64,000 nt of DNA. It comes from Candidatus Woesearchaeota archaeon. Its GTDB lineage: Archaea; Nanobdellota; Nanobdellia; Woesearchaeales; ARS49. The translations under genes were made by a program, and so were the position numbers. The DNA lies in the NCBI GenBank assembly GCA_037445145.1, contig JBBILB010000004.1, forward strand, positions 15,555 through 79,554, read 5' to 3'. Below the pieces are notes generated by a model that was given only the letters and a program-made list of their open reading frames with translations, was not told where the DNA came from and searched no databases. Numbering within the stretch: position 1 is the first letter of the stretch; the number at the start of each line of letters is the position of its first letter. Positions 37,035 to 55,848 of the stretch are shown piece by piece.

Positions 37035-37256
37035 CTAACCCGGCTTAGCCGCCAATTTCACATCAGATGCCTTTACTGTCTTTCTTCCTGCGTGCATTGC
37101 GAGCTTGACAGCGCTCTGGGCAATTTTCTCAGCATATTCTTCCAGGACTTCCTTTAATGCCGCCTTTGCCTTGTCAGAAACGCGCTCTGCGCCCGCTGTC
37201 TTGATTATTTTCTCCATTGCAGCCAGAGGAATTAGCCTTTTTGATATTTGAGCCAT
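37035..37256 (-). CDS. Archaeal histone (HMf family)
   Basis: ORF trimmed to ATG 37256, after GGGGTGAT SD. LIPLAAMEKIIKTAGAERVSDKAKAALKEVLEEYAEKIAQSAVKLAMHAGRKTVKASDVKLA closely resembles HMfB. Confidence 0.92.
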   Translation of the reverse strand: MAQISKRLIPLAAMEKIIKTAGAERVSDKAKAALKEVLEEYAEKIAQSAVKLAMHAGRKTVKASDVKLAAKPG

Positions 37257-37288
37257 AAAATCACCCCGGATTTGCAAATGAAGGGAAA

Positions 37289-37300
37289 TTATATATAAAC
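37289..37300. promoter_or_regulatory. Near-palindromic TATA element shared by the divergent histone and hjc genes
   Basis: TTATATATAAAC lies 23-34 nt upstream of hjc ATG 37323 and 33-44 nt upstream of histone ATG 37256. The intergenic region is only 66 nt. Confidence 0.45.
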
Positions 37301-37322
37301 ATTGCGCCAAACAAGAATAAAA

Positions 37323-37724
37323 ATGGGTGCAAAGACAAAAGGAACAGGCGCAGAAAGGGAATTGGTCCACTTATTCTGGGAAAAGGGCTGGGCAGCAGCA
37401 CGAGTGGCCGGCTCAGGAAGCATAAAATACCCAGTCCCGGACATTCTTGCAGGAAAAAACAAACAAGTGCTTGCTATAGAGTGCAAGACAACAAAAAACG
37501 AGTGCCAATACCTAACAAAAGAGGAAGTTGCTGATTTGAAGGAATTCGCAAAAATCACCGGCGCAGAGCCGTACATTGCAGTACGCTTTGCTAGAGAGGA
37601 ATGGGCATTCTTGCATCCCAACGAGCTTGACGTTACTGTTTCACAATTTGTGGTAAGCAAAAAACTTGCGTTGGAAATAGGAAAAAAAATTGATGAAGTA
37701 ATCAGCACAGCGAAAGGTATATAA
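37323..37724 (+). CDS. hjc: Holliday junction resolvase Hjc
   Basis: KGTGAERELVHLFWEKGWAAARVAGSG, PDILAGKNKQVLAIECKTTK (PD..ExK), EPYIAVRF. Confidence 0.9.
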   Translation: MGAKTKGTGAERELVHLFWEKGWAAARVAGSGSIKYPVPDILAGKNKQVLAIECKTTKNECQYLTKEEVADLKEFAKITGAEPYIAVRFAREEWAFLHPNELDVTVSQFVVSKKLALEIGKKIDEVISTAKGI

Positions 37725-37726: not shown

Positions 37727-37751
37727 AACACCAAAACGTTTTTTCTTGAAA

Positions 37752-38318
37752 ATGTTAAAAATGAATAAAAAAACGAAGCCCAAAAAACCAAAAAAAACCG
37801 CGCCAAAACCAACAGCAAAGGAAGACTTTCTTTCAGAAGTAATAAAGGAAGTTGTTGGTGAAGACGTGTTGCCATTAGTAAGGGTGTTGAAAAACAAAAA
37901 GAACTTTTCAGAATTCAAGCTCGCTGAAACAATAAAGAAGGAAATCAACATCGTAAGAAACATGCTTTACAGGCTTTACGACCACAACCTTGTCACGTTT
38001 ATGCGCAAAAAAGACAAGAAAAAAGGCTGGTACATTTATTACTGGACATTCAACCCAAAAAGGGTCAAGGAACTTGTCAGGAACCTGAAAAAAACAAAGG
38101 TTGAGAAGCTGAAGGAGCGCATTGAGCGCGAAAAATCAACAAATTTCTTCACGTGCGCAAACAAGTGCATACGCCTTGACTTTGACCAGGCAACAGAATT
38201 CGAGTACAAGTGCCCAGAATGCGGCGAAATCCTGCAACAGGAAGACAACACGAAAAGAATAGCAGAACTTGAAAAGGAGCTGCAAATGCTAGAAAAGGAG
38301 CTCAGGGCAAAGAAGTAA
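37752..38318 (+). CDS. tfe: Transcription factor E (TFE alpha, TFIIE-alpha homolog)
   Basis: Lys-rich N-terminus, a wH region (VRNMLYRLYDHNLVTFMRKKDKKKGWYIYYWTFN) and a zinc ribbon (CANKC..CPECG). The ORF opens at TTG 37746. Confidence 0.85.
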   Translation: MLKMNKKTKPKKPKKTAPKPTAKEDFLSEVIKEVVGEDVLPLVRVLKNKKNFSEFKLAETIKKEINIVRNMLYRLYDHNLVTFMRKKDKKKGWYIYYWTFNPKRVKELVRNLKKTKVEKLKERIEREKSTNFFTCANKCIRLDFDQATEFEYKCPECGEILQQEDNTKRIAELEKELQMLEKELRAKK

Positions 38319-38930: not shown

Positions 38931-39128
38931 TCAGCGCTTTTTGCGCATGACCCTTTCAATCAACTGCTCTTCAGCAAGGATCTTGTGGGCGATGCTGTCA
39001 ATGTGCTCCTCAATCCGTGCAACGCGGCGCTCCATCAGGATAAGCACACGTATACAATACACTATTGCCGCGAGCGTTCCGACAATAACAGCAAGCGTAA
39101 TCCTCAAGACCATATCATCAACAGCCAT
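38931..39128 (-). CDS. Small single-TM protein with C-terminal amphipathic/coiled helix (65 aa)
   Basis: ATG 39128 follows AGGTGGAGGA SD. MAVDDMVLRITLAVIVGTLAAIVYCIRVLILMERRVARIEEHIDSIAHKILAEEQLIERV. It ends 5 nt before the next gene. Confidence 0.5.
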   Translation of the reverse strand: MAVDDMVLRITLAVIVGTLAAIVYCIRVLILMERRVARIEEHIDSIAHKILAEEQLIERVMRKKR

Positions 39129-39194
39129 AATCCTCCACCTCATTTAACTTCTTAATAGATAAAATTGATTTAAAAGAGTATAAAAAGGTTTGGG

Positions 39195-39998
39195 TTACTT
39201 GACTGCCTTGCCAGAATCCCAGATTGTATTAAAGATATTTTCAAAGGATTTTGCGAATGATTCTGTGCTGACCCAGACGCCAAAGTCATAATTCGGGTGG
39301 GCGTTTGCATCATCCAAAACCATAAATGTGACGTTCTTGCCATCAACAACAACAAACCGGGCCTTTGCGTCATCAACATGCCTGACCTGTGCGTGCGCTG
39401 ATAACGCCTTTGCTGCAGCACGGGATTCCTTTGTTATCGGGGCTGCTATCCTAATCCTTACGCCTCGCTCCTTTGCCTTAGAAATCACACCACCCAAAGC
39501 ATCAAGCTTCCTCACCAATCCTTGATCTGTTGTCAGAATTGACACGCTTTTTTGAGCACCCTTAATAATCGAAGCAAGGTGGTTGTGAAGGTTTGTGCGA
39601 CCCTTTACGGCGCCGGTAAGGTCTGCGGGCTCAACAAGGTCAACACCCTGCTTGTGAAGCATGTTAAGGTCTGCGAGGACATCACTTCCCTTAAGGCTTT
39701 CAAGAAGCTGCACCCGCTTTCCTGCATCCTCTGAAATATTTTTCTTGACCCTCTCAAGCACTTCTGCAGGAGGTATTGCGATGTACTTTATGGGCTTGCC
39801 AAGCTTCATTACAACAAAACCTTTTCTTTCAAGACTTTCAAGAACATCATAAGAACGTGATCTTGGAACGTTTGCAATGTCAGAAAGCTCTCCCGCAGTT
39901 GCAACACCACGTGAGAGTAATGCTGTCCACAATTTTGCTTCATAACTGTTGAGGCCGAAATCCTTAAGTTTGTTCAAAAAATCCTTTTGCACAATCAT
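39195..39998 (-). CDS. TrmB-family transcriptional regulator (paralog 2), adjacent to the putative origin
   Basis: ORF trimmed to ATG 39998 (MIVQKDFLNKLKDF.., parallel to MIVKEEFLSKLRRYF.. of paralog 1). Same 54-aa wHTH; divergent C-terminal domain. Confidence 0.85.
   Translation of the reverse strand: MIVQKDFLNKLKDFGLNSYEAKLWTALLSRGVATAGELSDIANVPRSRSYDVLESLERKGFVVMKLGKPIKYIAIPPAEVLERVKKNISEDAGKRVQLLESLKGSDVLADLNMLHKQGVDLVEPADLTGAVKGRTNLHNHLASIIKGAQKSVSILTTDQGLVRKLDALGGVISKAKERGVRIRIAAPITKESRAAAKALSAHAQVRHVDDAKARFVVVDGKNVTFMVLDDANAHPNYDFGVWVSTESFAKSFENIFNTIWDSGKAVK
39768..39929 (-). repeat. Second copy of the 54-codon TrmB wHTH coding repeat (see 17708-17869)
   Basis: Encodes WTALLSRGVATAGELSDIANVPRSRSYDVLESLERKGFVVMKLGKPIKYIAIPP, identical to paralog 1. 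Confidence 0.85.
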
Positions 39999-40127
39999 TT
40001 TTACAAAGCCCCCTTCATTATTTAGCAATCTTGATATTCATTCAAATAATATCCTTGTAGAGGTACACTATATTTAAAGCTTTTGACTTTTTAGTATTGA
40101 GGAGTAGCAACATTTTTTGTTTTTATT

Positions 40128-40153
40128 CCTACCCCTCTATTTCTTCTGGAAAA
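40128..40153 (-). promoter_or_regulatory. ORB-like origin recognition box (left, inverted)
   Basis: The reverse complement reads TTTTCCAGAAGAAATAGAGGGGTAGG, i.e. TCCAGAAGAAA plus a G-string, matching the right-hand box at 16 of 19 core positions. Confidence 0.6.
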
Positions 40154-40376
40154 TGAGTTTTATATAATTAAATTGGTTTTTGTGTTATCTATATCATATA
40201 TATTTTTAAATAAAGATATTCACATATATATTTTTAAATTAATTTTCATTTTTATTTATTTTCTATATATAAATAAATTAATAAGTATATAAAACTTCAC
40301 TTTTTTATTCTCTATAATTAAATATATATTATTAAATACACAAAACACACTAATACAACATTTCTTTAATTCCATT
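40154..40376. other. AT-rich duplex-unwinding-element candidate of oriC
   Basis: About 220 nt of almost pure A/T (ATATAT runs, TTTTTAAAT) flanked by inverted ORB-like boxes. The only long non-coding, strongly AT-rich tract in the window, directly upstream of cdc6. Confidence 0.6.
40195..40239 (+). repeat. Perfect 17-nt direct repeat inside the AT-rich tract
   Basis: CATATATATTTTTAAAT occurs at 40195-40211 and 40223-40239 (28-nt period). Confidence 0.85.
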
Positions 40377-40400
40377 CCTCCAAAAGAAACAAAGGGGAGG
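40377..40400 (+). promoter_or_regulatory. ORB-like origin recognition box (right)
   Basis: CCTCCAAAAGAAACAAAGGGGAGG, i.e. TCCAAAAGAAAC plus a G-string, in opposite orientation to the box at 40128-40153. Confidence 0.6.
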
Positions 40401-40424
40401 CGCACAACCTCAAATAAAGAAAAG

Positions 40425-40433
40425 CATAAATAC
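40425..40433 (+). promoter_or_regulatory. TATA-box-like element for cdc6
   Basis: CATAAATAC lies 24-32 nt upstream of ATG 40457. Confidence 0.4.
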
Positions 40434-40456
40434 CAGTGTTTCAACTGGAAAGAAAA

Positions 40457-41686
40457 ATGCAGGAAAAGGGGTTGGTAAGACTTTTTGAAAAATACTTAGA
40501 CCGTAAATCAATTTTCAAAAACAAATCAGTACTTCAAGCAAACTTCAATCCATCAAACATTCCACACAGAGATGAGCAAATAAACAACATTGCCAAAATT
40601 CTGGCACCGTGCCTGCGAGCAGAAAAGCCATCAAACATTTTCATTTACGGAAAAACAGGCACTGGAAAGACGTTGGTTGTACAATACACACTAAATCAAC
40701 TTTCTTTAGTTGCAACAGGTCGCGCAGTGCCAATCATACCTGTTTACCTTAACTGCAAGATGAAAAAAGTTGCGGACACGCAATACAGGCTCATTGCCCA
40801 CATAGTACGAGAAAAATTCAATGAAAACCTTCCAGTAACAGGCCTGCCGACAGAGGAAATTTATGCAGCATTCCTCAGAGCAGTTGACACCAAGAAGCAA
40901 TTAATCATACTTGTACTTGACGAAATAGATCATTTAATGGACAGGGAAGGCGACGAGCTCCTCTACAACCTCACAAGGATAAACACAGAACTGAAAAACG
41001 CTCAAATTTCCATCATCGGAATTTCAAACAACGCAAACTTCATCAACAGGCTTGATCCGAGAGTAAAGAGCTCATTATCCCAGGAAGAATTATTCTTCCC
41101 ACCATATAATGCGCTGCAACTGCAGGACATACTAAAACAACGCGCTAATGAAGCGCTTGTAAATGGTGCAATACTCCCCGGCGTTATTGAAAAATGCGCG
41201 GCGTATGCTGCAAGAGACCACGGCGACGCGAGGAGGGCAATAGAGTTGCTGCGGGTGGCTGCAGAGCTTGCAGAACGCTCGGGCGCTGAAAAAATCACCA
41301 CAGACCACATTGATCAGGCAGAGCAAAAGATAGAGACAGACAGGATTTTTGAGATAATAAGGACGCAGCCCACACAATATCAGGCCACACTTTTTGCCAT
41401 TTACACAATCTGCTCAAAAAAGAAAGAGCAGGTATTCACAGGAGAGGTGTACGACCTATACCAGTCAATCTGCAACAGGGTTGGCCTAAGGCCACTTACC
41501 CAACGCAGAATATCAGACATAGTAGGCGAACTTGACATGCTGGGAATCATCAACGCAAAGGTGATTTCAAAAGGGCGCTACGGCAGGACAAGGGAAATTT
41601 CAATATCAACAACCAAAGAAACGACGCCACGCATCCTGCAGACCCTTGCAAAAGAGTTTGCCCTTACACCTCCCAATGAATCCTGA
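40457..41686 (+). CDS. cdc6: Orc1/Cdc6 replication initiator
   Basis: IPHRDEQINNIAKILAP, IYGKTGTGKT (Walker A), LVLDEIDHL (Walker B), GDARRAIELLRVA (sensor 2), C-terminal wH (GRYGRTREISI). The ORF opens at GTG 40436; ATG 40457 is preferred. Confidence 0.93.
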   Translation: MQEKGLVRLFEKYLDRKSIFKNKSVLQANFNPSNIPHRDEQINNIAKILAPCLRAEKPSNIFIYGKTGTGKTLVVQYTLNQLSLVATGRAVPIIPVYLNCKMKKVADTQYRLIAHIVREKFNENLPVTGLPTEEIYAAFLRAVDTKKQLIILVLDEIDHLMDREGDELLYNLTRINTELKNAQISIIGISNNANFINRLDPRVKSSLSQEELFFPPYNALQLQDILKQRANEALVNGAILPGVIEKCAAYAARDHGDARRAIELLRVAAELAERSGAEKITTDHIDQAEQKIETDRIFEIIRTQPTQYQATLFAIYTICSKKKEQVFTGEVYDLYQSICNRVGLRPLTQRRISDIVGELDMLGIINAKVISKGRYGRTREISISTTKETTPRILQTLAKEFALTPPNES

Positions 41687-43166
41687 CACAGAATCAAAGA
41701 AAAAGGAAATAGTAAAATACCTTCTGAGTCAGCAAGTACTGGTCAAGCCAGAATTCCTGGCAGCATTCTCCAAACCGGAAAAGGTCGACTACTTCTACCA
41801 ACAGGTTTTGCAAAACGTTCCGGCAAGCCAAATTCTTTCACTCGCTGCGAAACAAGGTTTAACAGAAAACCCGCCCCAAACAACCACAAACGCACCAGTT
41901 TGCACACCCAAAGTAAAGGTAGTATTCCAGTACCACGACAAACCCAAAAAAATAACCCCGCAAGACTTCGTGAATTATTTCAATGCGCGCTACAGGGCAA
42001 TTGAGAAAATGCTCCATCACAGGCAGGAACTCCAGAACCTAACATCAATAGGCAGGCTGAACAACAAGAGGGACCGCGAAACAGTGTCAATAATCGGCAT
42101 GGTTAGTGACAAGCAAACGACAAAGAACGATAAAATAGTACTCACCATTGAAGACCCCAGCGGAAGAATAAAAGTAATGATAAGCAAGTCAAAGCCAGAA
42201 GTGCACGAAGCAGCAAAAGACATCGTTCCAGATGAAGTAATAGGCATTACCGGCACAACCGGCAACAACATTGTGTTTGCAAACACAATTGTCCTTCCAG
42301 AAATACCCCTCACGGGCGAGCTGAAGAAATCGCCTGACGAAGCATATGTTGCTGTGCTTTCCTGCGTGCACGTCGGGTCCAAGCTGTTCATGAAGGATGC
42401 CTTTGAGAGATTCATACGGTGGCTGTGCGGCGAAACCGGCAGCGAGGAACAGAGGGCGATTGCAAAAAAGGTCCGGTACGTAATAATTGCCGGCGACCTG
42501 ATTGACGGCGTGGGTGTTTACCCAAACCAGGAAAAAGAGCTTGAAATACTTGACGTTTACGAGCAGTACAACGAGGCAGCACGGCTGCTTGGACAAATAC
42601 CAAAAAACATTGCAATAATAATCTGCCCGGGAAACCACGATGCAGGCAGAATCTCAGAGCCCCAACCGCCCCTATCACGGACATATGCAAAGGCGCTTTA
42701 TGAATTACCAAACGCGTTTCTGATCGGAAACCCCTGCATGATAAACATCCACAGCTCGGAAACATTCCCCGGTTTTGACGTGCTTGTTTATCACGGATTC
42801 AGCTTTGATGACTATGGCGAGATTGTTTCAAGCATAAAGAACTCGGGAAAAACAATCTCTGACAGGGCTCCACTGATAATAAAATTTTTGCTGCAAAGAA
42901 GGCACCTTGCGCCCACACACACGTCCACACTCTATATGCCCGACCCTGAGAAGGACCCGTTGGTGCTCGAAAAAGTCCCTGACATTTTCATAGGGGGGCA
43001 CATCCACAAGAGCAACGTGGCAAGCTACAGGGGAGTAAGCATAGTCCTTGGAAGCTGCTTCCAGGCAAAGACCCCCTTTCAGGAAAAAATGGGTCATGAG
43101 CCAGACCCGGGCAGGGTGCCTGTCATAAACCTTCACACACGTGCGGTCAAAATACTGAGGTTCTGA
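41676..43166 (+). CDS. dp1: DNA polymerase II (PolD) small subunit DP1
   Basis: OB segment plus calcineurin-like phosphoesterase motifs (VLSCVHVGS, IIAGDLIDGVGVY, ICPGNHD, GGHIH). ATG 41676 overlaps the cdc6 3' end by 11 nt. Confidence 0.92.
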   Translation: MNPDTESKKKEIVKYLLSQQVLVKPEFLAAFSKPEKVDYFYQQVLQNVPASQILSLAAKQGLTENPPQTTTNAPVCTPKVKVVFQYHDKPKKITPQDFVNYFNARYRAIEKMLHHRQELQNLTSIGRLNNKRDRETVSIIGMVSDKQTTKNDKIVLTIEDPSGRIKVMISKSKPEVHEAAKDIVPDEVIGITGTTGNNIVFANTIVLPEIPLTGELKKSPDEAYVAVLSCVHVGSKLFMKDAFERFIRWLCGETGSEEQRAIAKKVRYVIIAGDLIDGVGVYPNQEKELEILDVYEQYNEAARLLGQIPKNIAIIICPGNHDAGRISEPQPPLSRTYAKALYELPNAFLIGNPCMINIHSSETFPGFDVLVYHGFSFDDYGEIVSSIKNSGKTISDRAPLIIKFLLQRRHLAPTHTSTLYMPDPEKDPLVLEKVPDIFIGGHIHKSNVASYRGVSIVLGSCFQAKTPFQEKMGHEPDPGRVPVINLHTRAVKILRF

Positions 43167-43167
43167 A

Positions 43168-46100
43168 ATGCTGAAGACAAAAATCACGGCAAACCCGCAA
43201 ATGCAGGAATACTTTGAGTCCATACAGCAACGGGTTGATGAAGTGCACAAAATTGCCAGCGAAGCGAGAGCAAAGGGCTATGACCCAGACACCGCAGTTG
43301 AGGTCAAGCTCGCGGCAAATATGGCAGAGCGCGTTGTCGGCCTCATAAGCGTAGTTGCGCCCCAACTCGCCGACGCGGGAGTTGTTGAACGAATTATGGA
43401 GCTTGAAAAGCAGTATGGCGCGCTTGACTGGCGGGTTGGGCTTGCAATCGCCGGCGAGATTGCACAGCAGAAATTCTGCAAGTTCAGGGACCAAGAAGAG
43501 GCAATCAGCATAGGGGTCAGGACAGGATTTGCATACGTTACCATGGGAGTCGTTTCATCACCACTTGACGGACTGGTAAGCATTGAAATAAAGAAAAGAA
43601 TGGACAACCGCGGGGAATACTTCTGCGTTAACCTCGCAGGACCGATAAGAAACGCAGGAGGCACAGCGGCAGCAGTTTGTTTGCTTATTGCAGACTACGT
43701 CAGGACCCTGTTCAAGTATGATGTTTATGACGCGCAGGATCTTGAAATCAAGAGAGCATACACAGAAATGACCGACTACAGGGAAAAAGTTGCGCCAAGA
43801 CAGTATTTTCCGACATTTGAGGAAATAGAATTTGTCATGAAGCACCTTCCAATTGAGGTTGGCGGCGAACCCTCTGAAAAATTTGAAGTTTCAAACTACA
43901 AAGATCTGCCAAGAATACCGACAAACTTCGTCAGGAGCGGATTTTGCCTTGTAATGACAGAATGCATACCGCTAAAGGCACCCAAACTCTGGGGAAAGCT
44001 CAGTGTTTGGGGAAAAGATTTCGGAATGGAGCACTGGAATTTTCTTGAAGAATACCTTAAAATCCAAAAAGCCGCAAAAGCAAGGGGGGAAATCAAGAAA
44101 GAAAGCTCGATAAAACTTACCCCCGACTTCAGCTACATAGCAGACCTTGTAGCAGGCCGTCCCGTATTCGCGCACCCCCTGCGCGTCGGCGGGTTCAGGC
44201 TAAGGTATGGCAGAAGCAGGACGACCGGGCTTTCAACAGACGGCATACACCCAGCCACGATGCTCGTCACGACAAACTACCTTGCCACAGGAACCCAGCT
44301 CAAGACAGAGCGTCCCAAAAAAGGAAGCGCAATAACCGCCTGCGACACAATCGACGGGCCAATAGTAAAGCTTGATGACGGTTCTGTAGCGCAATTGCAA
44401 AGCATTGCAGCATACAAGGCAGTGCAGGGCAAAATTGCGGAAATACTCTTCCTTGGCGACATGCTCGTCAATTACGGCGACTTTGCCAACCGCGCCCATC
44501 CACTAGTGCCTGCAGGATACTGCCCTGAATGGTGGGTGCAGGAGCTGGAAAAGGCAGCAACAGCAATGCACGGGGAAGTTTCACCAGAAAAAATAGCCGC
44601 GGCTTCAAAAACCCCTGTTGAGCTCATACGGGCAGTGATTGAAAACCCCCTGCGCACTACCCCGCAAGCCAACGATGCTCTCAAACTCAGCACAGCATTC
44701 GGCATTCCGCTACATCCCGCATACACATATTACTGGAGCACAATAAACAGGGAACAGCTCAAGCAGTTAGTGCAGTGGATGGACAAGAAAACCGTGCACA
44801 TGCGGCAGGACGGAAAAATGGTCAGCAAGGTTGTTATTCCAAGAGAGGAAGCGCCAAAACGCGCCCTTGAGCTTGTTGGACTGCCCCACATTGTTGTTGT
44901 TCAGGAAAACGTTGTTGTTGAGTCAGACCACGCGCAGGCATTGCTGGCAACACTGGGCTGGCCTGCAAAAAACACAGAAACACTCCTTGACATAATAGAA
45001 AGGCATCCCGAAAAGGGCGCCCTTGAGCTCATCAACCTGTTCGCGCCGGTGCCAATAAGGGACAAGGCAGGAACATTCATCGGCGCACGCATGGGAAGAC
45101 CAGAAAAAGCAAAGATGCGCAAGCTCACAGGCTCGCCACACTGCCTCTTCCCTGTAGGGGATGAAGGAGGAAAATTCAGGAGCTTCCAAAGTGCAATGGA
45201 AAAAGGCACAATAACAGCAGAATTCCCGCGGTACGTATGCAGAAAATGCAACCGCACAACAGTCCTTTCTGTCTGTGAAACATGCAACACGCCGACAGAA
45301 AGAACATGGCACTGCAAAAGCTGCAATGCATGGATAAAAGAGCCTGTTTGTCCAAAGCACGGCGAAACCCAGCCTTGCCACGAAACAACAATAGATGCAA
45401 AGCACTACTTCAGCGCGGCTGCTGAAAAAGTCGGGATGCGCTCACAGCCTGAACTAATAAAGGGCGTGAGAGGAACCAGCAACCGCGAACATATCCCAGA
45501 ACACATTGCAAAGGGGCTGCTGAGGGCAAAGCACGAGATAGCAGTCAACAAAGATGGAACAACAAGGTACGACATGACCCAGCTGCCCATAACACACTTC
45601 AAACCCAAGGAAATAAGCACAAGCATTGAAAGGCTCAAGCAGCTCGGCTACGACAAGGACATACTTGGAAAACCACTTGAGAACGCCGAACAGGTTTTGG
45701 AGTTGAAGCCCCAAGATGTAATACTCCCTGACTGTGATGCCTCACCCGATGAAAAAATAACATCCGTGCTTATGCGCATCGCAAACTTCATCGATGACGA
45801 ACTCACAAATATTTACGGCCTAAAACCTTTTTACTCAATCCAAAAGCCAGACGACCTTACCGGACACCTTATCGTGGCTCTTGCACCGCACACATCAGCA
45901 GGAATAGTCTGCAGGATAATTGGATTCAGCAAGACGCAAGGCTTTTTTGCGCACCCCTACATACATTCAGCAACAAGGAGGGATTGTGACGGAGACGAGG
46001 CGTGCGCCATCCTGCTAATGGATGCGTTCCTCAACTTCTCAAAGAAATACCTGCCGAACACAAGGGGCTCAACCATGGACGCACCGCTAGTCCTCACATC

Positions 46101-46734
46101 CGTGCTGACTCCTGCCGAAGTGGACGACATGGTGTTTGACCTTGACATCGTATGGCGGTACCCCTTAGAGCTCTACGAGGCAGCACTGCAGTTCAAGATG
46201 CCCTGGGAGATAAAGATCAAGCAGGTCAAGTCAGTGCTTAACAAGCCAGATCAATACGAGGGTTTTGGCTTCACACACGACGTCAGCGATATGAACGAAA
46301 CCATCAGGTGTTCCGCGTATAAAACCCTACCATCAATGGAGGACAAGCTCAAGGGGCAGATGGAACTGGCTGAGAAATTGCGGGCGGTTGACATGTCGGA
46401 TGTTGCCCGGCTCGTGATTGAAAAGCACTTCCTGAAGGATACGAAAGGGAACCTGAGAAAGTTCGGAATGCAGGAGTTCAGGTGCGTGAACTGCAATGAA
46501 AAATTCAGGCGTCCGCCGCTCGTTGGAAAATGCACTGCCTGCGGCGGAAAAATACTATTCACAATATCCGAAGGATCTGTAGTGAAGTATTTGGAGCCCA
46601 CAATATCACTCGCAAAAAAATACAATGTTTCAGGATATTTGCAGCAGGCAATAGAACTTTTGCAGGTCAGGATAGAGGGCGTGTTCGGCAAGGAAAAAGA
46701 AAAGCAGACAGGGCTCGGAGCGTGGTTTGGGTAA
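43168..46734 (+). CDS. dp2: DNA polymerase II (PolD) large subunit DP2, no intein
   Basis: 1188 aa. MQEYFESIQQRVDEVHKIASEARAKGYDP, multiple Zn-cluster motifs (CRKCNRTTVLSVCETCN, CKSCNAWIKEPVCPKHG, CVNCNEKFRRPPLVGKCTACGG), double-psi-barrel segment RRDCDGDE, C-terminal PIP-like QTGLGAWFG. Starts 1 nt after the dp1 stop. Confidence 0.95.
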   Translation: MLKTKITANPQMQEYFESIQQRVDEVHKIASEARAKGYDPDTAVEVKLAANMAERVVGLISVVAPQLADAGVVERIMELEKQYGALDWRVGLAIAGEIAQQKFCKFRDQEEAISIGVRTGFAYVTMGVVSSPLDGLVSIEIKKRMDNRGEYFCVNLAGPIRNAGGTAAAVCLLIADYVRTLFKYDVYDAQDLEIKRAYTEMTDYREKVAPRQYFPTFEEIEFVMKHLPIEVGGEPSEKFEVSNYKDLPRIPTNFVRSGFCLVMTECIPLKAPKLWGKLSVWGKDFGMEHWNFLEEYLKIQKAAKARGEIKKESSIKLTPDFSYIADLVAGRPVFAHPLRVGGFRLRYGRSRTTGLSTDGIHPATMLVTTNYLATGTQLKTERPKKGSAITACDTIDGPIVKLDDGSVAQLQSIAAYKAVQGKIAEILFLGDMLVNYGDFANRAHPLVPAGYCPEWWVQELEKAATAMHGEVSPEKIAAASKTPVELIRAVIENPLRTTPQANDALKLSTAFGIPLHPAYTYYWSTINREQLKQLVQWMDKKTVHMRQDGKMVSKVVIPREEAPKRALELVGLPHIVVVQENVVVESDHAQALLATLGWPAKNTETLLDIIERHPEKGALELINLFAPVPIRDKAGTFIGARMGRPEKAKMRKLTGSPHCLFPVGDEGGKFRSFQSAMEKGTITAEFPRYVCRKCNRTTVLSVCETCNTPTERTWHCKSCNAWIKEPVCPKHGETQPCHETTIDAKHYFSAAAEKVGMRSQPELIKGVRGTSNREHIPEHIAKGLLRAKHEIAVNKDGTTRYDMTQLPITHFKPKEISTSIERLKQLGYDKDILGKPLENAEQVLELKPQDVILPDCDASPDEKITSVLMRIANFIDDELTNIYGLKPFYSIQKPDDLTGHLIVALAPHTSAGIVCRIIGFSKTQGFFAHPYIHSATRRDCDGDEACAILLMDAFLNFSKKYLPNTRGSTMDAPLVLTSVLTPAEVDDMVFDLDIVWRYPLELYEAALQFKMPWEIKIKQVKSVLNKPDQYEGFGFTHDVSDMNETIRCSAYKTLPSMEDKLKGQMELAEKLRAVDMSDVARLVIEKHFLKDTKGNLRKFGMQEFRCVNCNEKFRRPPLVGKCTACGGKILFTISEGSVVKYLEPTISLAKKYNVSGYLQQAIELLQVRIEGVFGKEKEKQTGLGAWFG

Positions 46735-47043: not shown

Positions 47044-47454
47044 TTAAATCTTTGACTTGACAGGCTGCTTGTGGCCGCAAGCATTGCACTTAAGGTATGT
47101 GAAGTCACCCTCTTTGATAAGGTCTGTGTCGGGCTTTCCGTCCTTCGGGCACAGCACGAACTCATATGCATACTCTTTTATCTTGTCATTTATTCGCGAT
47201 GCAGGAATTTTTGTGCCAAGCACCAAAAGCCCTGCCTTGTTGATTTCGCCGGGTGTTGCCAGCTCCTTGAGAATGAACTTAAGCAAATGCTCAATAGGCC
47301 TGCGAAGTGTTGAGGCTATCTGGGCAAAATTGCTGATAACTGTCTTGTTGCCTTCAATATGCCCCTTAACTTTTGGAATTTCAAAGCGCTCGCGCTCCAC
47401 AACAGCCTGCGGAAGCAACTGGCGCGCGCGCTCAAGCAATTGCTCGTATTCCAT
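47044..47454 (-). CDS. eif2b: Translation initiation factor 2 subunit beta (aIF2-beta)
   Basis: ORF trimmed to ATG 47454. YEQLLERARQLLP..RFEIPKVKGHIEGNKTVISNFAQIASTLRRPIEHLLKFILKELATPG..YAYEFVLCPKDGKPDT..YLKCNACG. Confidence 0.9.
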   Translation of the reverse strand: MEYEQLLERARQLLPQAVVERERFEIPKVKGHIEGNKTVISNFAQIASTLRRPIEHLLKFILKELATPGEINKAGLLVLGTKIPASRINDKIKEYAYEFVLCPKDGKPDTDLIKEGDFTYLKCNACGHKQPVKSKI

Positions 47455-47510
47455 AGGATGAATAATCCAATTACTGTTTATAAAACTGATTGTTTTTTCC
47501 AGAACAAAAG

Positions 47511-47520
47511 GTATATAAAC
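47511..47520 (+). promoter_or_regulatory. TATA-box-like element
   Basis: GTATATAAAC lies 23-32 nt upstream of ATG 47543. Confidence 0.45.
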
Positions 47521-47542
47521 CCAAACGCTGAATTCAGCACGC

Positions 47543-48391
47543 ATGGTCTTGGAGTCATTGCTTAATCCCTTCCGCGCCGAGAGGCAGCCATGGGTTCTTG
47601 TGTTGCTTGGCTTCCTTTATGCATCACTTGGGCTGTTTTTAAGCCTCTGGATTTTTGAGGAACAGGCAAGCATAGTTATGGTCTTCCTCACGGTAATGGC
47701 GGCCCTGCCATTGATGTACCAGGCAATACGCCTTGAGGAAGAAAAGGATATACTACTATCCCACGAACGCACCATTCTCAAGGAACACGGCAAGGCAATC
47801 AAATTTTTCCTCACACTTTTTATTGGTTTCGTTATAGCATATTCACTCTGGTATGTCGTCCTTCCCGATGTTCTTTCACAGAAACTGTTCATCACCCAAA
47901 CCCACACGATATCAAACCTGAACCAGCAGGTCACAGGCGCACTTGCTCAGTTCGGGCTGATGAACAAGATATTCCTGAACAACGTGAAAGTGTTGATTTT
48001 CTGCATACTGTTCTCGTTCCTGTACTGCTCTGGCGCAATATTCATCCTTAGCTGGAATGCAAGCGTCATCGGAGCCGCAGTCGGCAACTTCATACGCACG
48101 CACTTGGCGCAGGCAGCAGAATCCACAGGACTTGCGCGGTATGCGAACTACCTGCACATAAGCTCGCTGAGCCTGCTCAGGTATGCTGTTCACGGAATTC
48201 CTGAAATACTCGCCTACTTCATTGCAGGGCTTGCAGGAGGCATACTTTCAGTGGCAATAATACGGCACGACTTTGGCACAACAAACCTTGAAAAAGTGCT
48301 GCTGGACACATCCGACCTCATACTGATTGCTATATTCATCCTGTTCATTGCAGCATTAATTGAGGTCTTCGTAACTCCTGCATTCTTCTGA
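47543..48391 (+). CDS. SpoIIM/DUF95-family integral membrane protein
   Basis: Multi-TM. FLNNVKVLIFCILFSFLYCSGAIFILSWNASVIGAAVG and GIPEILAYFIAGLAGG are typical of the stage II sporulation protein M-like family. Confidence 0.6.
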   Translation: MVLESLLNPFRAERQPWVLVLLGFLYASLGLFLSLWIFEEQASIVMVFLTVMAALPLMYQAIRLEEEKDILLSHERTILKEHGKAIKFFLTLFIGFVIAYSLWYVVLPDVLSQKLFITQTHTISNLNQQVTGALAQFGLMNKIFLNNVKVLIFCILFSFLYCSGAIFILSWNASVIGAAVGNFIRTHLAQAAESTGLARYANYLHISSLSLLRYAVHGIPEILAYFIAGLAGGILSVAIIRHDFGTTNLEKVLLDTSDLILIAIFILFIAALIEVFVTPAFF

Positions 48392-50646: not shown

Positions 50647-52725
50647 TTAGATGCGGCTGATGAAGCCGTGCTTGGGCTCAAAGATGTCCCCTGACTTCTT
50701 GAGCCTTTGGATGATGTCTTCAATCTCTGCCTCGCTCAAGCCCTTTTCAGAAGCGGATTTGACAACGTCATCAAGGGGCACAATCTTGCCAACCTTGTTC
50801 TCGAGCTCGGCAATAATCTCCTTAACTGTTATTATCTTGTTCCTTTGCGAAGCAGGCATTGCAGTTGCAATCCTGTCAATATCAATCTGCCCTGTCTCCT
50901 CATCCATCGCGACCTGCCTGAGGCAGTAATCAAGAAGCTCAATAGCCTTCTTTGCATCCTTTTTCAGTACCTTGTCGCGCAAGTGCAACCTCGCAGAGGC
51001 TTCACTCAGCCTGACAAGCCCTTCAAGCTGCCTTGCAGAAACAGGAACAGCCTTTGCGCTTGCCCCTGAACCTGCAGAAGCACGCATCTTGATGAAGTAC
51101 TCCTTCAACTCATCAATTGCGCCGTCAGTGAGCTTCGGGAAAACGTTCTTGCGCGCATAGGCAACATACTTGCGCAACAAGTCCGTGGAAACAGGCGGCG
51201 CCTCAACATTGTTTTGGTGCAGTTCAAGCATGAAAGCGGCAAGCTTCTCGTCGGTCTTCTGATTAGGAATGTCCTTTATTGGAAAAATCAGGTCAAAGCG
51301 GTTAATGAGCGTTGGCGGCAGGTCAATCTGGTTGGCAACAGTGTCGTAAGGGTCAAACCTGCCAAATTTCGGGTTTGCAGCAGCAAGCACTGTAGTCTCG
51401 CACCGCAATGTTGCCTGGATGTTTGCCTTGCTTATAGTAACTGTCTGCTGCTCAAGGGCCTCGTGCATTGCCCAGCTGTCATCCTTGTTCATCTTGTCAA
51501 GTTCGTCAATCATTGCCATACCCTTGTTTGCCAGGACAAGGGCTCCTGCCTCAAGGCTCCAGCCCTGCAAAAACTCGTCCTTGACAACAGTTGCGGAAAG
51601 CCCGGCACCACTCGCACCTTTCCCAGTCACATACCTCCCTTTTGGCGCGATTACCGCCATGCGCTTGAGCATTTGGGACTTTGCCGCGCCAGGATCCCCA
51701 ACCAGCAGGATATGAATGTCACCCCTGCGGATAACACCATCATCATGCTTTTTCCTCACACCTCCAAACATCTGCAGCAAAAGCGCCTCCTTTACACGTT
51801 CGTGTCCGTAAATGCTTGGCGCGACAGAAGACACCATTTTCCTAATAAGGGCAGGATCCTCGGCAAGCTCCCTGATTTTCTGCTCCTCCTCGGCTGAAAT
51901 CCTGAGGTCTGTGAATTCCTCCTGGACTCCAACAACAGAATTTGCCTCAAGCAGAAGGTCAAAGCGGGTGCTCTGGACACCTGACCTGGTAATGATTGGC
52001 ACTTCCTTTATCACGCCAACAAGGATTATCCGCGAACCAGGGTTTGTCTTTTTCTCGCTCAACGGGCTGACAAGATCGTTCTTCAGGAAGACATTTATGC
52101 GCTTTGGCTGCTCTCCGCCCTCAAGCTGTTCAGGAACCTCCTCAAGCACCAATCCCTGAGCATCAACAAGAACTTTGCTCAAAAGCCTGAACTTTCCCTT
52201 CCTTCCACAACTGCATCTGCTTGGCTCCTTGAATTTGTTGTCCAATTGCAGCATTGCAATCATGTTCCCGCAACTAGGACACTCAAACCTTGCCTCTGTA
52301 ACCTGCGGCCGCACGTCTGACTTCTGCCTCACAATACCTTCAACAAAAATGAGCTTGTTCAGGTGCACTGAGCGAATATTTCTTATCATAATCCTGCTCG
52401 ACTCAGGCAGGTTAAAGAAGCGCACTGCAAAGCCCTTTACGTCACCGGGCACATCAAACTCTTCAATCGCCAATTCAGCAGCCTTAAGGAACTCCTCAGG
52501 AAGCTCAAGAAGGGCATCAGCAATGTCAGGGTCAAACTTTGAGAGTGCCGGAAAGTCCACATTCAACCACTTCTGACCCTTTCTTGCCTGCTCCACCAGT
52601 TCTGCATAACAGTGCTGCTGGAAGAAGTCATGAAGTTTCTGTATCAGCTCTCTGGCATCCAACTGCTTGGCAACTGCTTGTTCTGCCATCCCAAAACGCG
52701 AATGAGAGAGCATTCCCTCATTCAT
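50647..52725 (-). CDS. mcm: MCM replicative helicase, no intein
   Basis: Zn motif CPSCG..CSCG; LLVGDPGAAKSQ (Walker A); AMIDELDKM (Walker B); SRFDLIF (Arg finger); C-terminal wH. The start is uncertain among M1, M5 and M13. Confidence 0.95.
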   Translation of the reverse strand: MNEGMLSHSRFGMAEQAVAKQLDARELIQKLHDFFQQHCYAELVEQARKGQKWLNVDFPALSKFDPDIADALLELPEEFLKAAELAIEEFDVPGDVKGFAVRFFNLPESSRIMIRNIRSVHLNKLIFVEGIVRQKSDVRPQVTEARFECPSCGNMIAMLQLDNKFKEPSRCSCGRKGKFRLLSKVLVDAQGLVLEEVPEQLEGGEQPKRINVFLKNDLVSPLSEKKTNPGSRIILVGVIKEVPIITRSGVQSTRFDLLLEANSVVGVQEEFTDLRISAEEEQKIRELAEDPALIRKMVSSVAPSIYGHERVKEALLLQMFGGVRKKHDDGVIRRGDIHILLVGDPGAAKSQMLKRMAVIAPKGRYVTGKGASGAGLSATVVKDEFLQGWSLEAGALVLANKGMAMIDELDKMNKDDSWAMHEALEQQTVTISKANIQATLRCETTVLAAANPKFGRFDPYDTVANQIDLPPTLINRFDLIFPIKDIPNQKTDEKLAAFMLELHQNNVEAPPVSTDLLRKYVAYARKNVFPKLTDGAIDELKEYFIKMRASAGSGASAKAVPVSARQLEGLVRLSEASARLHLRDKVLKKDAKKAIELLDYCLRQVAMDEETGQIDIDRIATAMPASQRNKIITVKEIIAELENKVGKIVPLDDVVKSASEKGLSEAEIEDIIQRLKKSGDIFEPKHGFISRI

Positions 52726-52780: not shown

Positions 52781-53380
52781 TTATTTGGCCTTTACCTTTT
52801 TCAGGTTCTCTATGAGCTTGTCCAGAGCCTTGTTGACCTCTTCCTCACTCTTTGTGCCTGTGCAGACAACCTTCCCATTGCTGAACAGCAGAAAGGTTGC
52901 CTTCTGGTCAGGTAGTTTGTACACAAGCCCTGGAAACTGCTCTGGCTCGTACTCTGTGTTCTCAAGCTTCATTGCGAGCACGTTCAGGTTAAGGTCCATT
53001 CCAACACTGCCTGCTGCGACAATATTCTGGATGTTCACCTGCGGCTCAACCTTAATCTTGACATTGATTTTTTCAAGACTCTTTATGATTTTCCTTATGG
53101 ACTCGTGCACCTTGTCCATGCTCCTCGCGCCAGTGCACACAATCTTTCCTGACGAGAATATGAGAGCAGACGTCTTTGGCTCCTTTATCCTGATGACCAG
53201 CCCCGGGAACTGCTCAGGATTATATTCTGTGTTGCTCAGTGTTGCAGCCATTTTTTCAAGCGGAATATCATGCCCTAGGTTCGCGCTCACAACAATGTTC
53301 ACAACCTTGATTTCGCGCTGTTCTGTTTTTGGTGCAGCCTTTTTTGCCTTCTTGGCGGCTTTTTTTGCCATAATGTTCAC
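52781..53380 (-). CDS. tbp: TATA-box binding protein with Lys/Ala-rich N-terminal extension
   Basis: Two direct repeats: VNIVVSANLGHDIPLEKMA..EYNPEQFPGLVIRIKEPKTSALIFSSGKIVCTGARS and IQNIVAAGSVGMDLNLNVLA..EYEPEQFPGLVYKLPDQKATFLLFSNGKVVCTGTKS. The N-terminus is MNIMAKKAAKKAKKAAPK. Confidence 0.95.
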   Translation of the reverse strand: MNIMAKKAAKKAKKAAPKTEQREIKVVNIVVSANLGHDIPLEKMAATLSNTEYNPEQFPGLVIRIKEPKTSALIFSSGKIVCTGARSMDKVHESIRKIIKSLEKINVKIKVEPQVNIQNIVAAGSVGMDLNLNVLAMKLENTEYEPEQFPGLVYKLPDQKATFLLFSNGKVVCTGTKSEEEVNKALDKLIENLKKVKAK

Positions 53381-53438: not shown

Positions 53439-53551
53439 TGTATTTAAAAATGGAAATTACCGAGAATACACCTCCATCATTTCCTGTGGAACTCTGGCTG
53501 CTATTTCTTCTCCCCTAAAAAGCCCATTTGGAGCAGATTTTGCCTTTCTGG

Positions 53552-54455: not shown

Positions 54456-54493
54456 TTTATCCACCAATGAACTTTCTCATCATAGGATTCATG
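54456..54493 (-). repeat. 38-nt perfect direct repeat, copy B (authentic secY 3' end: ..MNPMMRKFIGG stop)
   Basis: Identical to 54324-54361. Confidence 0.95.
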
Positions 54494-55848
54494 TCCATCA
54501 AGTGCTGTTTTGCAATGTCCTCGTAAAGCCTGTAAATAATCATGACAGTAAGCAAAAGCCCTGTGCCATTTGTCAAAGCGCCTGAAATGTCAGCAAGACC
54601 CGCAAGAATGCCAACTGCAATAGCGCCCATAACAGTCAAAGGGATAATGTAGCGATCAAGCAAACGCTCAAGCACTCGCTCATCCTTCCTAAAGCCAGGA
54701 ATCTGCAAACCAGACCTCATAATCTGCCTTGCCTGGCTTTTTGCGTCCATCCCTGAAGTCTGCACCCAGAACCACGAAAACACAACAGCACCGCCAATAA
54801 GGAAAATCAGGTAAACAAGGGCATGCCAGATGTCCGAAATGGTCAATGAGCCCCTGATAAGCTTTCCAACAATGTCAGGCGAATAAATCCACGCAACAAA
54901 ACCAGTGGCTGGCGTGTTTCCGACAAAAGTGCCAAGCCAAGGATGACCCCACCTCTGCATCAGGTGCGCCCAAAGCTGAATGTTGGCAATGAGCGCTGAA
55001 ATAAGGATGACTGGAATGTTTGAGGTATAAACAAAGCTCAAAGGCCACCTTATGCCGTGGCCGCGAATCCTGCCAAAAGAAAGAGGAATCTCAACCTTCA
55101 TGCTCTGCGCATAAACAGCAATCACGAAAATGACAATTGTGGAAAGCACTGTTGAAAGCATAAGTATTGCAGTCTGCGGGTCTCCGCGCGCAAGGCTCTG
55201 GAACAAAGCAGGAATTGCACCAGTCATGATTTCAGGATTGTTCGGCGACGGCAATGGTGACAAAGCCCTAATGAAAATACTTTGCGAGACCCCTGCCGCG
55301 ATAAACAATGATATTCCAGAACCAAACCCCCACTTGCTAACGACCTCGTCCATGAACATAATCATTATTCCGCCAAGGAACAACTGGAAAACAAGCAAAA
55401 GCTGCAGGATAAAATAAGAGGCAGTGCCCGCGAGAGTTTCTGGAGGAGCAAGCCCGCCCATAAACACGTAAATCCCGCCTTCAAACAGGATGAAGAATAT
55501 GCTGAGCAATTTCTGGACACCCTGAAAATTCCTTTTTCCATCATGCGTGGTAAGGTCAAACTTTACCAAACCTGAGCCGTTAAGCAACTGAAGCACTATG
55601 CTTGCAGTAACTATGGGTCCAATTCCAAGGCTTATGATTGAGCCAAAGGAGGCTCCAAGTATTATTGAAAGAATCTCAAACTGCTGCAAGGCATTCTGCC
55701 CAAGCCCAAACAATGGAATAAGCCCAAGAATAAAAAAAAGCACAAGCACTATCAGCGTCCACTTCATCTTTTCCTTGAACCCGAGCTTGCGCTGGGTCGG
55801 AGGGGCGACCTCAGGAAGGTTATAAAGTATTTCCTTGTACCAAGACAT
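54457..55848 (-). CDS. secY: Preprotein translocase subunit SecY
   Basis: 463 aa, 10 TM. MSWYKEILYNLPEVAPPTQRKLGFKEKMKWT, GIGPIVTASIVLQLL, GTGLLLTVMIIYRLYE. Follows uL15 as in all archaeal spc clusters. Confidence 0.97.
   Translation of the reverse strand: MSWYKEILYNLPEVAPPTQRKLGFKEKMKWTLIVLVLFFILGLIPLFGLGQNALQQFEILSIILGASFGSIISLGIGPIVTASIVLQLLNGSGLVKFDLTTHDGKRNFQGVQKLLSIFFILFEGGIYVFMGGLAPPETLAGTASYFILQLLLVFQLFLGGIMIMFMDEVVSKWGFGSGISLFIAAGVSQSIFIRALSPLPSPNNPEIMTGAIPALFQSLARGDPQTAILMLSTVLSTIVIFVIAVYAQSMKVEIPLSFGRIRGHGIRWPLSFVYTSNIPVILISALIANIQLWAHLMQRWGHPWLGTFVGNTPATGFVAWIYSPDIVGKLIRGSLTISDIWHALVYLIFLIGGAVVFSWFWVQTSGMDAKSQARQIMRSGLQIPGFRKDERVLERLLDRYIIPLTVMGAIAVGILAGLADISGALTNGTGLLLTVMIIYRLYEDIAKQHLMDMNPMMRKFIGG

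Follow-up and report, generated by a model that had tools for sequence, protein, structure and literature searches.

We analysed a 64-kb stretch of contig JBBILB010000004.1 from a Candidatus Woesearchaeota archaeon (hereafter the window) and find that a 458-nt non-coding gap within it, lying between a TrmBL2-like gene on the minus strand and the orc1/cdc6, DP1 and DP2 genes on the plus strand, is likely to be a working Orc1/Cdc6-dependent chromosomal replication origin of the oriC1 type in this Woesearchaeal (DPANN) archaeon. The sequence features by which Orc1-dependent origins with origin recognition boxes (ORBs) are recognised are all found here: consensus ORBs, an inverted pair of them around an AT-rich element, an adjacent initiator gene and conservation at the orthologous position. 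The original prediction, made from the letters of the window, had read the region as an oriC, and the canonical inverted ORBs, the AT tract of lowest duplex stability, the Orc1-1-type gene together with PolD and the order-wide conservation support that reading at the level of sequence. The elements of the gap and the genes that frame it are listed below by their positions in the window; BRE stands for the transcription factor B recognition element.

39195..39998, minus strand: TrmBL2-like gene, 267 aa, divergent from the origin (Pfam TrmB, Regulator_TrmB)
40009..40013, minus strand: Shine-Dalgarno-like GGGGG, ~10 nt upstream of the TrmBL2-like ATG
40071..40086, minus strand: putative TrmBL2-like promoter, BRE-like TCAAAAGC followed by TATA box TTTAAATA; found order-wide
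40088..40112, no strand assigned: operator-like element TTTTTAGTATTGAGGAGTAGCAACA, between the TrmBL2-like promoter and ORB-L
40128..40152, minus strand: ORB-L, TTTCCAGAAGAAATAGAGGGGTAGG, an exact pattern match with the G-string distal and the TCCA end proximal to the unwinding region
40153..40376, no strand assigned: AT-rich duplex unwinding element, 224 nt, ~87% A+T, delimited by composition and duplex stability
40195..40239, plus strand: direct repeat pair, whose TTTTTAAAT cores are kept in relatives
40259..40274, no strand assigned: central palindrome, window copy TTTTCTATATATAAAT, matching the order-wide TTTTCWATATAGAAAA at 14 of 16 positions
40377..40401, plus strand: ORB-R, CCTCCAAAAGAAACAAAGGGGAGGC, an exact pattern match with the TCCA end proximal to the unwinding region and the G-string distal
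40416..40434, plus strand: cdc6 promoter, BRE-like AAAGAAAAG followed by TATA box CATAAATACC
40439..40450, minus strand: mini-ORB TTCCAGTTGAAA, without G-string, between the cdc6 TATA box and ATG and convergent with ORB-R
40457..41686, plus strand: orc1/cdc6 initiator gene, 409 aa (Pfam Cdc6_C, Cdc6_lid and AAA domains)
41676..43166, plus strand: PolD small subunit DP1 (Pfam)
43168..46734, plus strand: PolD large subunit DP2 (Pfam)

The ORB pair, the AT-rich tract and the initiator gene

The pattern TCCA-N3-GAAA-N4-GGGG (TCCANNNGAAANNNNGGGG) has two exact matches in the 64 kb, both at this locus, and three when one mismatch is allowed, compared to 0.39 expected. Scored with a position weight matrix (PWM), ORB-L is the top site of the window (32.3) and ORB-R the second (27.3), with the next-best site at 18.7. 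The pair is inverted, such that the TCCA ends point inward across the AT tract and the G-strings point outward. Both boxes had been proposed earlier with slightly different limits: the left one is present as the reverse complement TTCCAGAAGAAATAGAGGGGTAGG and occupies 40128-40151, not extending to 40153, and the right one is present as CTCCAAAAGAAACAAAGGGGAGG at 40378-40400, starting one position later than the 40377 first given. Their reported agreement at 16 of 19 positions was reproduced by a repeat finder, which returned inverted arms at 40132-40150 and 40379-40397 that are 84% complementary and 228 nt apart.

The DNA between the boxes stands out from the rest of the window both in composition and in duplex stability. 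Positions 40152-40377 are 86.7% A+T, compared to 51.8% for the window as a whole, so that the AT tract is real, even if its earlier description as nearly pure A/T was slightly generous. The most AT-rich 200-nt stretch of the window lies within the tract (88.5%, with the runner-up at 68.5%), as does its least stable 100-bp duplex (dG -91.8, compared to a mean of -140.5 ± 7.2; z 6.8, with the runner-up at z 3.5). Two further elements are embedded in this DNA. The two copies of the predicted 17-nt direct repeat CATATATATTTTTAAAT, at 40195-40211 and 40223-40239, are identical, and the central palindrome, which occurs once in the window, is located 108 nt from ORB-L and 116 nt from ORB-R.

The limits of the gap follow from its two flanking genes. 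The TrmB-like gene has its ATG at 39998, giving a protein of 267 aa as in all homologues, and the non-coding region therefore begins at 39999 and not at 40029, as had been assumed. On the other side, the cdc6 ATG was placed correctly at 40457, which is 56 nt past ORB-R. The overlap of 11 nt between cdc6 and DP1 was likewise confirmed (DP1 ATG at 41676, cdc6 stop codon ending at 41686), and an overlap of the same length is annotated in close relatives.

The Cdc6 protein clears the cutoff of the NCBIfam ORC1 equivalog NF001625, and its closest solved relatives are Orc1-1 of S. solfataricus (2QBY_A, 1.7e-104) and ORC1 of A. pernix (2V1U_A, 6e-98), with the wing segment GRYG(K/R)T(K/R)E kept between the initiator and the solved Orc1 proteins. 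We take both entries to be structures of the protein bound to origin DNA. Close homologues of the protein come from metagenome-assembled genomes labelled Woesearchaeota, Nanoarchaeia or Nanoarchaeota, which places the window in a DPANN archaeon. A tblastn search of the 64-kb window for a second orc1/cdc6 found none.

The initiator gene appears to be read from a promoter that is itself bracketed by Orc1-type sites, as its BRE and TATA box (40426-40432) lie between ORB-R and the mini-ORB. A TATA box is found at a comparable offset from cdc6 in most of 71 related loci, and the distance of ~25 nt from TATA box to ATG argues for a leaderless mRNA. In 50 of these 71 loci the sequence TTCnnnTGGA follows 5-8 nt downstream of the TATA box, and in leadered variants it keeps its distance to the TATA box, not to the ATG. 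The position of the mini-ORB suggests autorepression of cdc6 by Orc1.

The next-best PWM site of the window is an ORB-like singleton (GTTCCACAGGAAATGATGGAGGTGT, 53468-53492, minus strand; score 18.7) in which GGAG replaces GGGG, and which falls within the 180-nt intergenic stretch that precedes the TBP-MCM gene pair. The site may serve regulation by Orc1 or be a chance match; we judge it compatible with chance because 0.39 matches with one mismatch are expected.

The layout in related genomes

We compared the locus with 80 Woesearchaeal loci from species-representative genomes (56-63% Cdc6 identity, referred to as order-wide) and with 10 loci of closer relatives (76-100% Cdc6 identity, the close clade). 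A position-blind search for the ORB pattern in 88 of these loci and the window gave 78 matches, 77 of which fall in the 700 nt preceding cdc6 (49.6 kb summed over the loci), while the remaining match, in the other 600 kb, sits at -811. The original prediction had singled out frequent ORB-like motifs at random positions as one outcome that would speak against an origin; this test has now been run and, with 77 of 78 matches upstream of cdc6, leaves the origin unrefuted. The median position relative to cdc6 is -81 for plus-strand copies and -326 for minus-strand copies. Positions that the search pattern does not fix are also conserved, namely a fourth G (50 of 50 sites), the T that follows it (44 of 50) and A at +6 and +14, and the resulting Woesearchaeal ORB consensus reads tTTCCAyAnGAAAYnAnGGGGT. 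With a PWM trained on these same loci, an inverted pair was found in 47 of the 61 loci that have at least 650 nt of upstream sequence, and the spacer between the paired boxes averages 82% A+T, compared to 61% for the locus.

Within the close clade, the gene order TrmB-like gene, gap, cdc6, DP1, DP2 is invariant, and alignment of the gap reveals conserved islands in a diverged background. The islands coincide with the elements listed above, as seen from the mean pairwise identities in the close clade:

TrmB-side TATA/BRE: 0.87
operator-like block: 0.90
ORB-L core: 0.72
central palindrome: 0.80
ORB-R core: 0.76
cdc6 BRE/TATA: 0.89
mini-ORB: 0.83
linkers: 0.34-0.41
remainder of the AT tract: 0.51-0.56

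The motif ACCC...T.C...TGG.A in ORB-L is unchanged across the 10 relatives, and ORB-R is conserved in the gap alignment of close relatives as well. Furthermore, the spacer has a length of 217-224 nt in every close-clade locus although its sequence drifts. Sequence elements, polarity, uniqueness and conservation at the orthologous position are directly established.

The spacers also share an element of their own. Of 47 ORB-to-ORB spacers, 29 contain the 8-mers ATATAGAA and TATAGAAA, compared to ~3 expected from composition (z ~16), and both are parts of the 16-bp palindrome TTTTCWATATAGAAAA. This palindrome is usually found near the midpoint of the spacer, with left and right distances of, for example, 112/110, 113/110, 110/107, 160/159 and 47/51 nt. 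Thirteen loci carry the exact 16-mer, each a single time and in every case 180-385 nt upstream of cdc6, and it is absent from the rest of the loci examined (copies in relatives include L020:3754-3769, L028:2775-2790 and L006:3679-3694).

The AT tract coincides with a hotspot of assembly breaks. Of 80 related contigs, 24 have an end in the 400 nt upstream of cdc6, compared to 3.1 expected (Poisson P ~4e-14); these are the contigs of L009, L012, L015, L019, L021 and L023 and of 18 other loci, and their ends lie 5-385 nt upstream of cdc6. Short-read assemblies thus break in the tract, which complicates analysis of the locus by read depth.

Known origins and competing explanations

From this layout we infer Orc1 binding, MCM loading, autoregulation and firing along the following lines. 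One Orc1 monomer would bind each of the inverted ORBs, its winged-helix domain on the TCCA...GAAA part that faces the AT tract and its AAA+ domain on the distal G-string. Two ATP-bound Orc1 molecules would then recruit MCM onto the 224-nt AT-rich element between them, and melting of the duplex in this element would lead to bidirectional replication. The conserved palindrome in the middle of the tract would probably be bound by an accessory factor, and the third Orc1 site, lacking a G-string and placed between the cdc6 TATA box and start codon, would allow Orc1 to repress its own promoter.

Much of this picture has a counterpart in Sulfolobus (Saccharolobus) oriC1, where an inverted pair is arranged as ORB3-DUE-ORB2 (DUE, duplex unwinding element) upstream of orc1-1, with the initiator gene adjacent as in the window. 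The S. islandicus oriC1 ORB TCTCCAATGGAACCGAAGGGGT (TCCA-N3-GAAx-N4-GGGG-T) has the architecture and spacing of the window boxes. The reviews and the further paper searched for the polarity of ORBs relative to the unwinding element do not give it. Oligonucleotides used for mutagenesis of S. islandicus oriC1 (2025 dissection, PMC12141716 supplement) run from ACCCCTTCGGTTCCATTGGAGA through AT-rich DNA to AGAAATCTCCAAATGAAATAC, and from this order it follows that the boxes turn their TCCA ends towards the unwinding element and their G-strings away from it, which is exactly the arrangement in the window. Each of the two ORBs is individually required for firing of S. islandicus oriC1 in vivo. The two systems differ in the length of the spacer, ~224 nt in the window compared to roughly 100 nt in S. 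islandicus, and the window is without a third full ORB but has a mini-ORB in the cdc6 promoter and a TrmBL2-like left neighbour. Moreover, function has been demonstrated for Sulfolobus oriC1, whereas that of the Woesearchaeal locus is predicted from sequence. Both systems have an element halfway along the unwinding region; in Sulfolobus this is the essential ucm, located midway between ORB2 and ORB3 and bound by UBP. We rejected the central palindrome as a ucm, since TTTTCWATATAGAAAA is unrelated to the ucm-containing M6/M7 region AGATAACCATTTATACAAAAG; no search for a UBP orthologue was made. The resemblance between the palindrome and ucm would at most be one of position and function.

Aeropyrum pernix has four ORBs. 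The A. pernix ORB TCTCCACAGGAAACGGAGGGGT, which spans 22 bp in the ORC1-ORB4 complex (PDB 2V1U), is in the same register as the window boxes, and A. pernix ORC1 aligns with the initiator over its full length (E 6e-98), including the GRYGKTRE wing region. The base before GAAA is a G in the classical dyad (TCCA..GGAAA) and variable in the Woesearchaeal consensus. The same 4-nt register is found in the ORBs predicted for Methanomassiliicoccales (GTTCCAGTGGAAATGG-AGGGGTA), where inverted pairs adjoin orc1/cdc6.1, one of them with a spacing of 256 nt; these pairs are predictions too, they come from another phylum, and neither a central palindrome nor a TrmBL2-like neighbour is described there. The window boxes also fit the pan-archaeal ORB consensus CTTCCAGTGGAAACGAAAGGGGT, given in the same table as the Methanomassiliicoccales consensus.

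The order oriC-cdc6-dp1-dp2 is, as predicted for Pyrococcus, shared with the Pyrococcus/Thermococcales oriC; in Pyrococcus the origin has been mapped experimentally. Pyrococcus oriC shares with the window two inverted long ORBs, AT-rich DNA and a TTCC...GAA core. However, the G-string follows GAAA at a distance of 9 nt in Pyrococcus ORBs (TTCCAGTGGAAATGAAACTCTGGGGGG) compared to 4 nt in the window, and in Pyrococcus 13-bp mini-ORBs are numerous and dp1 contains a second cluster of ORBs, whereas the intergenic region of the window has a single mini-ORB and a search of the window dp1 found no ORB or mini-ORB. We therefore rejected an assignment to the Thermococcales type, which is marked by more than four clustered 13-bp mini-ORBs and an ORB cluster in dp1, and whose G-string spacing differs. 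Judged by box sequence, register, polarity, the Orc1-1-type gene and the AT spacer, the locus is of the oriC1 type and closest to Sulfolobus and Aeropyrum oriC1; judged by gene order, it is closest to oriC-cdc6-dp1-dp2 of Pyrococcus.

Several observations weigh against a working origin. Cumulative GC skew, which had been suggested as a check, declines across the whole 64-kb window, a stretch that does not cover the full chromosome, and shows no extremum at 40.2 kb; the skew tracks the coding strand. When the two coding strands are averaged, the skew of the plus strand goes from ~-0.01 on the left flank of the locus to ~-0.08 on the right flank, making the plus strand slightly more C-rich on the right, which is the opposite of the usual origin signature; this value comes from 64 kb with compositionally special genes. 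In some archaea, the Thermococcales among them, skew analysis is known not to work. The genes for MCM, TBP, SecY and probable ribosomal proteins at 50-62 kb are on the minus strand and would be transcribed head-on to a rightward fork. The PWM behind the pair count was built from the very loci it was scored on; the clustering of pattern matches is independent of it. According to published accounts, the canonical oriC and Cdc6 are dispensable in Thermococcus kodakarensis and dormant origins exist in Haloferax mediterranei, and a perfect origin sequence is therefore no proof of its use. We know of no in vivo or biochemical origin evidence for any DPANN archaeon. A skew pooled over the related loci was set aside, since it samples the same syntenic genes each time and the right-flank genes are all on the plus strand.

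These points bear most directly on an explanation that we regard as unlikely, namely that the locus genuinely binds Orc1 and is dormant, dispensable or only an occasional start, with the ORBs serving mainly to regulate transcription of cdc6-polD and the TrmBL2-like gene while replication starts elsewhere or by recombination. The two precedents just cited, the missing skew inflection and the head-on orientation of highly expressed genes nearby would all fit, as would the presence of an Orc1 site inside the cdc6 core promoter with ORB-R just upstream. Promoter control, however, needs neither a second inverted ORB 250 nt away nor a spacer of 217-224 nt with more than 80% A+T and a conserved element at its midpoint. 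Furthermore, a single copy of ORC1 is reported from almost the entire phylum, DPANN archaea have small genomes, and the window offers no evident alternative initiator. The copy number of ORC1 bears equally on the idea that the locus is one of several chromosomal origins and not the only one: multiple origins are common in Sulfolobales and haloarchaea, and only 64 kb of the genome are visible, yet extra origins are usually accompanied by extra orc1/cdc6 or whiP genes, whereas the ORC1 orthogroup has a single member in 206 of 208 complete Nanobdellota genomes (2026 preprint). As, moreover, neither the window nor 600 kb of related flanks has a second ORB pair, we hold more than one origin to be improbable.

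We give next to no credence to a reading of the gap as an ordinary AT-rich divergent promoter region with ORB-like boxes arisen by chance, which we consider effectively refuted. Two promoters do occur in the region, and AT-rich low-complexity DNA yields many weak repeats, as illustrated by the 59 inverted pairs returned by the repeat finder. Nevertheless, both exact ORB matches of the window lie here, with 0.39 expected by chance, 77 of 78 matches in relatives are at the orthologous place, and the boxes are conserved while the linkers that flank them are not. We retain a working oriC1-type origin as the likely interpretation of the locus.

Neighbouring genes and significance

A TrmB paralogue had been noted on the far flank of the gap, and this is borne out; more precisely, the protein is TrmBL2-like. 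It aligns over its full length to the Pyrococcus TrmBL2 structure 5BPD (E 7e-23), and the NCBIfam TrmBL2 model is its best match, but with a score under the model cutoff. In Thermococcales, TrmBL2 acts as a chromatin-associated repressor. Of the 55 loci with at least 1500 nt of upstream sequence, 36 have the TrmBL2-like gene as the divergent neighbour of cdc6. As a separate observation, its conservation equals that of Cdc6. A small conserved open reading frame (38931-39143, minus strand; 65-70 aa, 65 aa in relatives) lies directly downstream of it in all close relatives. This frame was considered as a small DNA-binding protein and rejected as such: its product resembles a membrane-anchored coiled-coil protein, with a charged helix after a hydrophobic N-terminal segment, and no NCBIfam family matches it.

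The Shine-Dalgarno-like sequence ahead of the TrmBL2-like gene is kept as GCCCCCTTCAT in 9 of 10 close relatives, and the GGGGG at 40009..40013 is a putative ribosome-binding site. The predicted promoter at 40071..40086 has its TATA box ~25 nt from the TrmB-like ATG in several distant loci, which argues for a leaderless mRNA and for the leftward direction of the promoter. Beyond it, 15-18 nt from the ORB-L G-string, lies the operator-like block, the best-conserved part of the intergenic gap. Its order-wide form is the palindrome TTTTTGTTAYT-N4-5-AGTARCAAC, which can still be made out in distant loci and has a single copy in the window; as a guess, the TrmBL2-like protein may autoregulate through it. 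The conserved block at 40070-40113 was also considered as a known RNA, which was ruled out, as no RNA family came up when positions 39000-41000 were scanned against Rfam with a permissive E-value; the block resolves into the promoter and the operator-like palindrome.

We tentatively consider a further possibility, which we hold to be doubtful, that the Woesearchaeal origin carries two lineage-specific control elements beyond ORB-DUE-ORB, namely the midpoint palindrome TTTTCWATATAGAAAA and the operator abutting ORB-L. By analogy with UBP and ucm, the palindrome may be bound by a dimeric factor with a comparable role, acting through a different motif and probably being a different protein, and the operator may serve the co-inherited TrmBL2-like chromatin protein.

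The locus sits within a block of information-processing genes that extends over 36.9-62 kb of the window and includes the following:

within 37035-37370, minus strand: histone
37302-37724: Hjc
37746-38318: TFE-alpha
47044-47544: aIF2-beta-like
50647-52725, minus strand: MCM
52781-53380, minus strand: TBP
54457-55848, minus strand: SecY

The MCM gene is ~10 kb from the locus and codes for a protein with the winged-helix tail of archaeal MCM. Between 55.8 and 61.9 kb, small genes follow one another on the minus strand and probably form a ribosomal-protein cluster. Since the window encodes histone, Hjc, TFE-alpha, MCM, TBP and SecY together with this run of small genes, it is chromosomal DNA.

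DPANN archaea, which are uncultivated and whose genomes are tiny, are believed to depend on hosts, and to our knowledge nothing is known experimentally about how their replication starts. In the literature searched we found no description of ORBs or of origin anatomy in DPANN, Woesearchaeota or Nanoarchaeota, and the 2026 preprint on 208 complete Nanobdellota genomes simply rotates genomes to ORC1. The element described here is ordinary in kind and its layout recurs upstream of the initiator gene across the order; its anatomy had been undescribed in this lineage. The central palindrome, the mini-ORB embedded in the cdc6 promoter and the TrmBL2-like neighbour with its operator are candidate additions that appear modestly novel. 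Together, the ORB consensus, the inverted pair and the ~220-nt spacer provide an order-wide origin model, which offers a sequence-based anchor and orientation for Woesearchaeal genomes and a basis for growth-rate (peak-to-trough) analyses, along with the practical warning that assemblies break at the AT tract. If the two control elements are real, they would together tie the licensing of DPANN origins to the state of the chromatin. Moreover, the ORB register and polarity of Sulfolobus and Aeropyrum extend to DPANN, which supports an ancestral oriC1/Orc1-1 pair.

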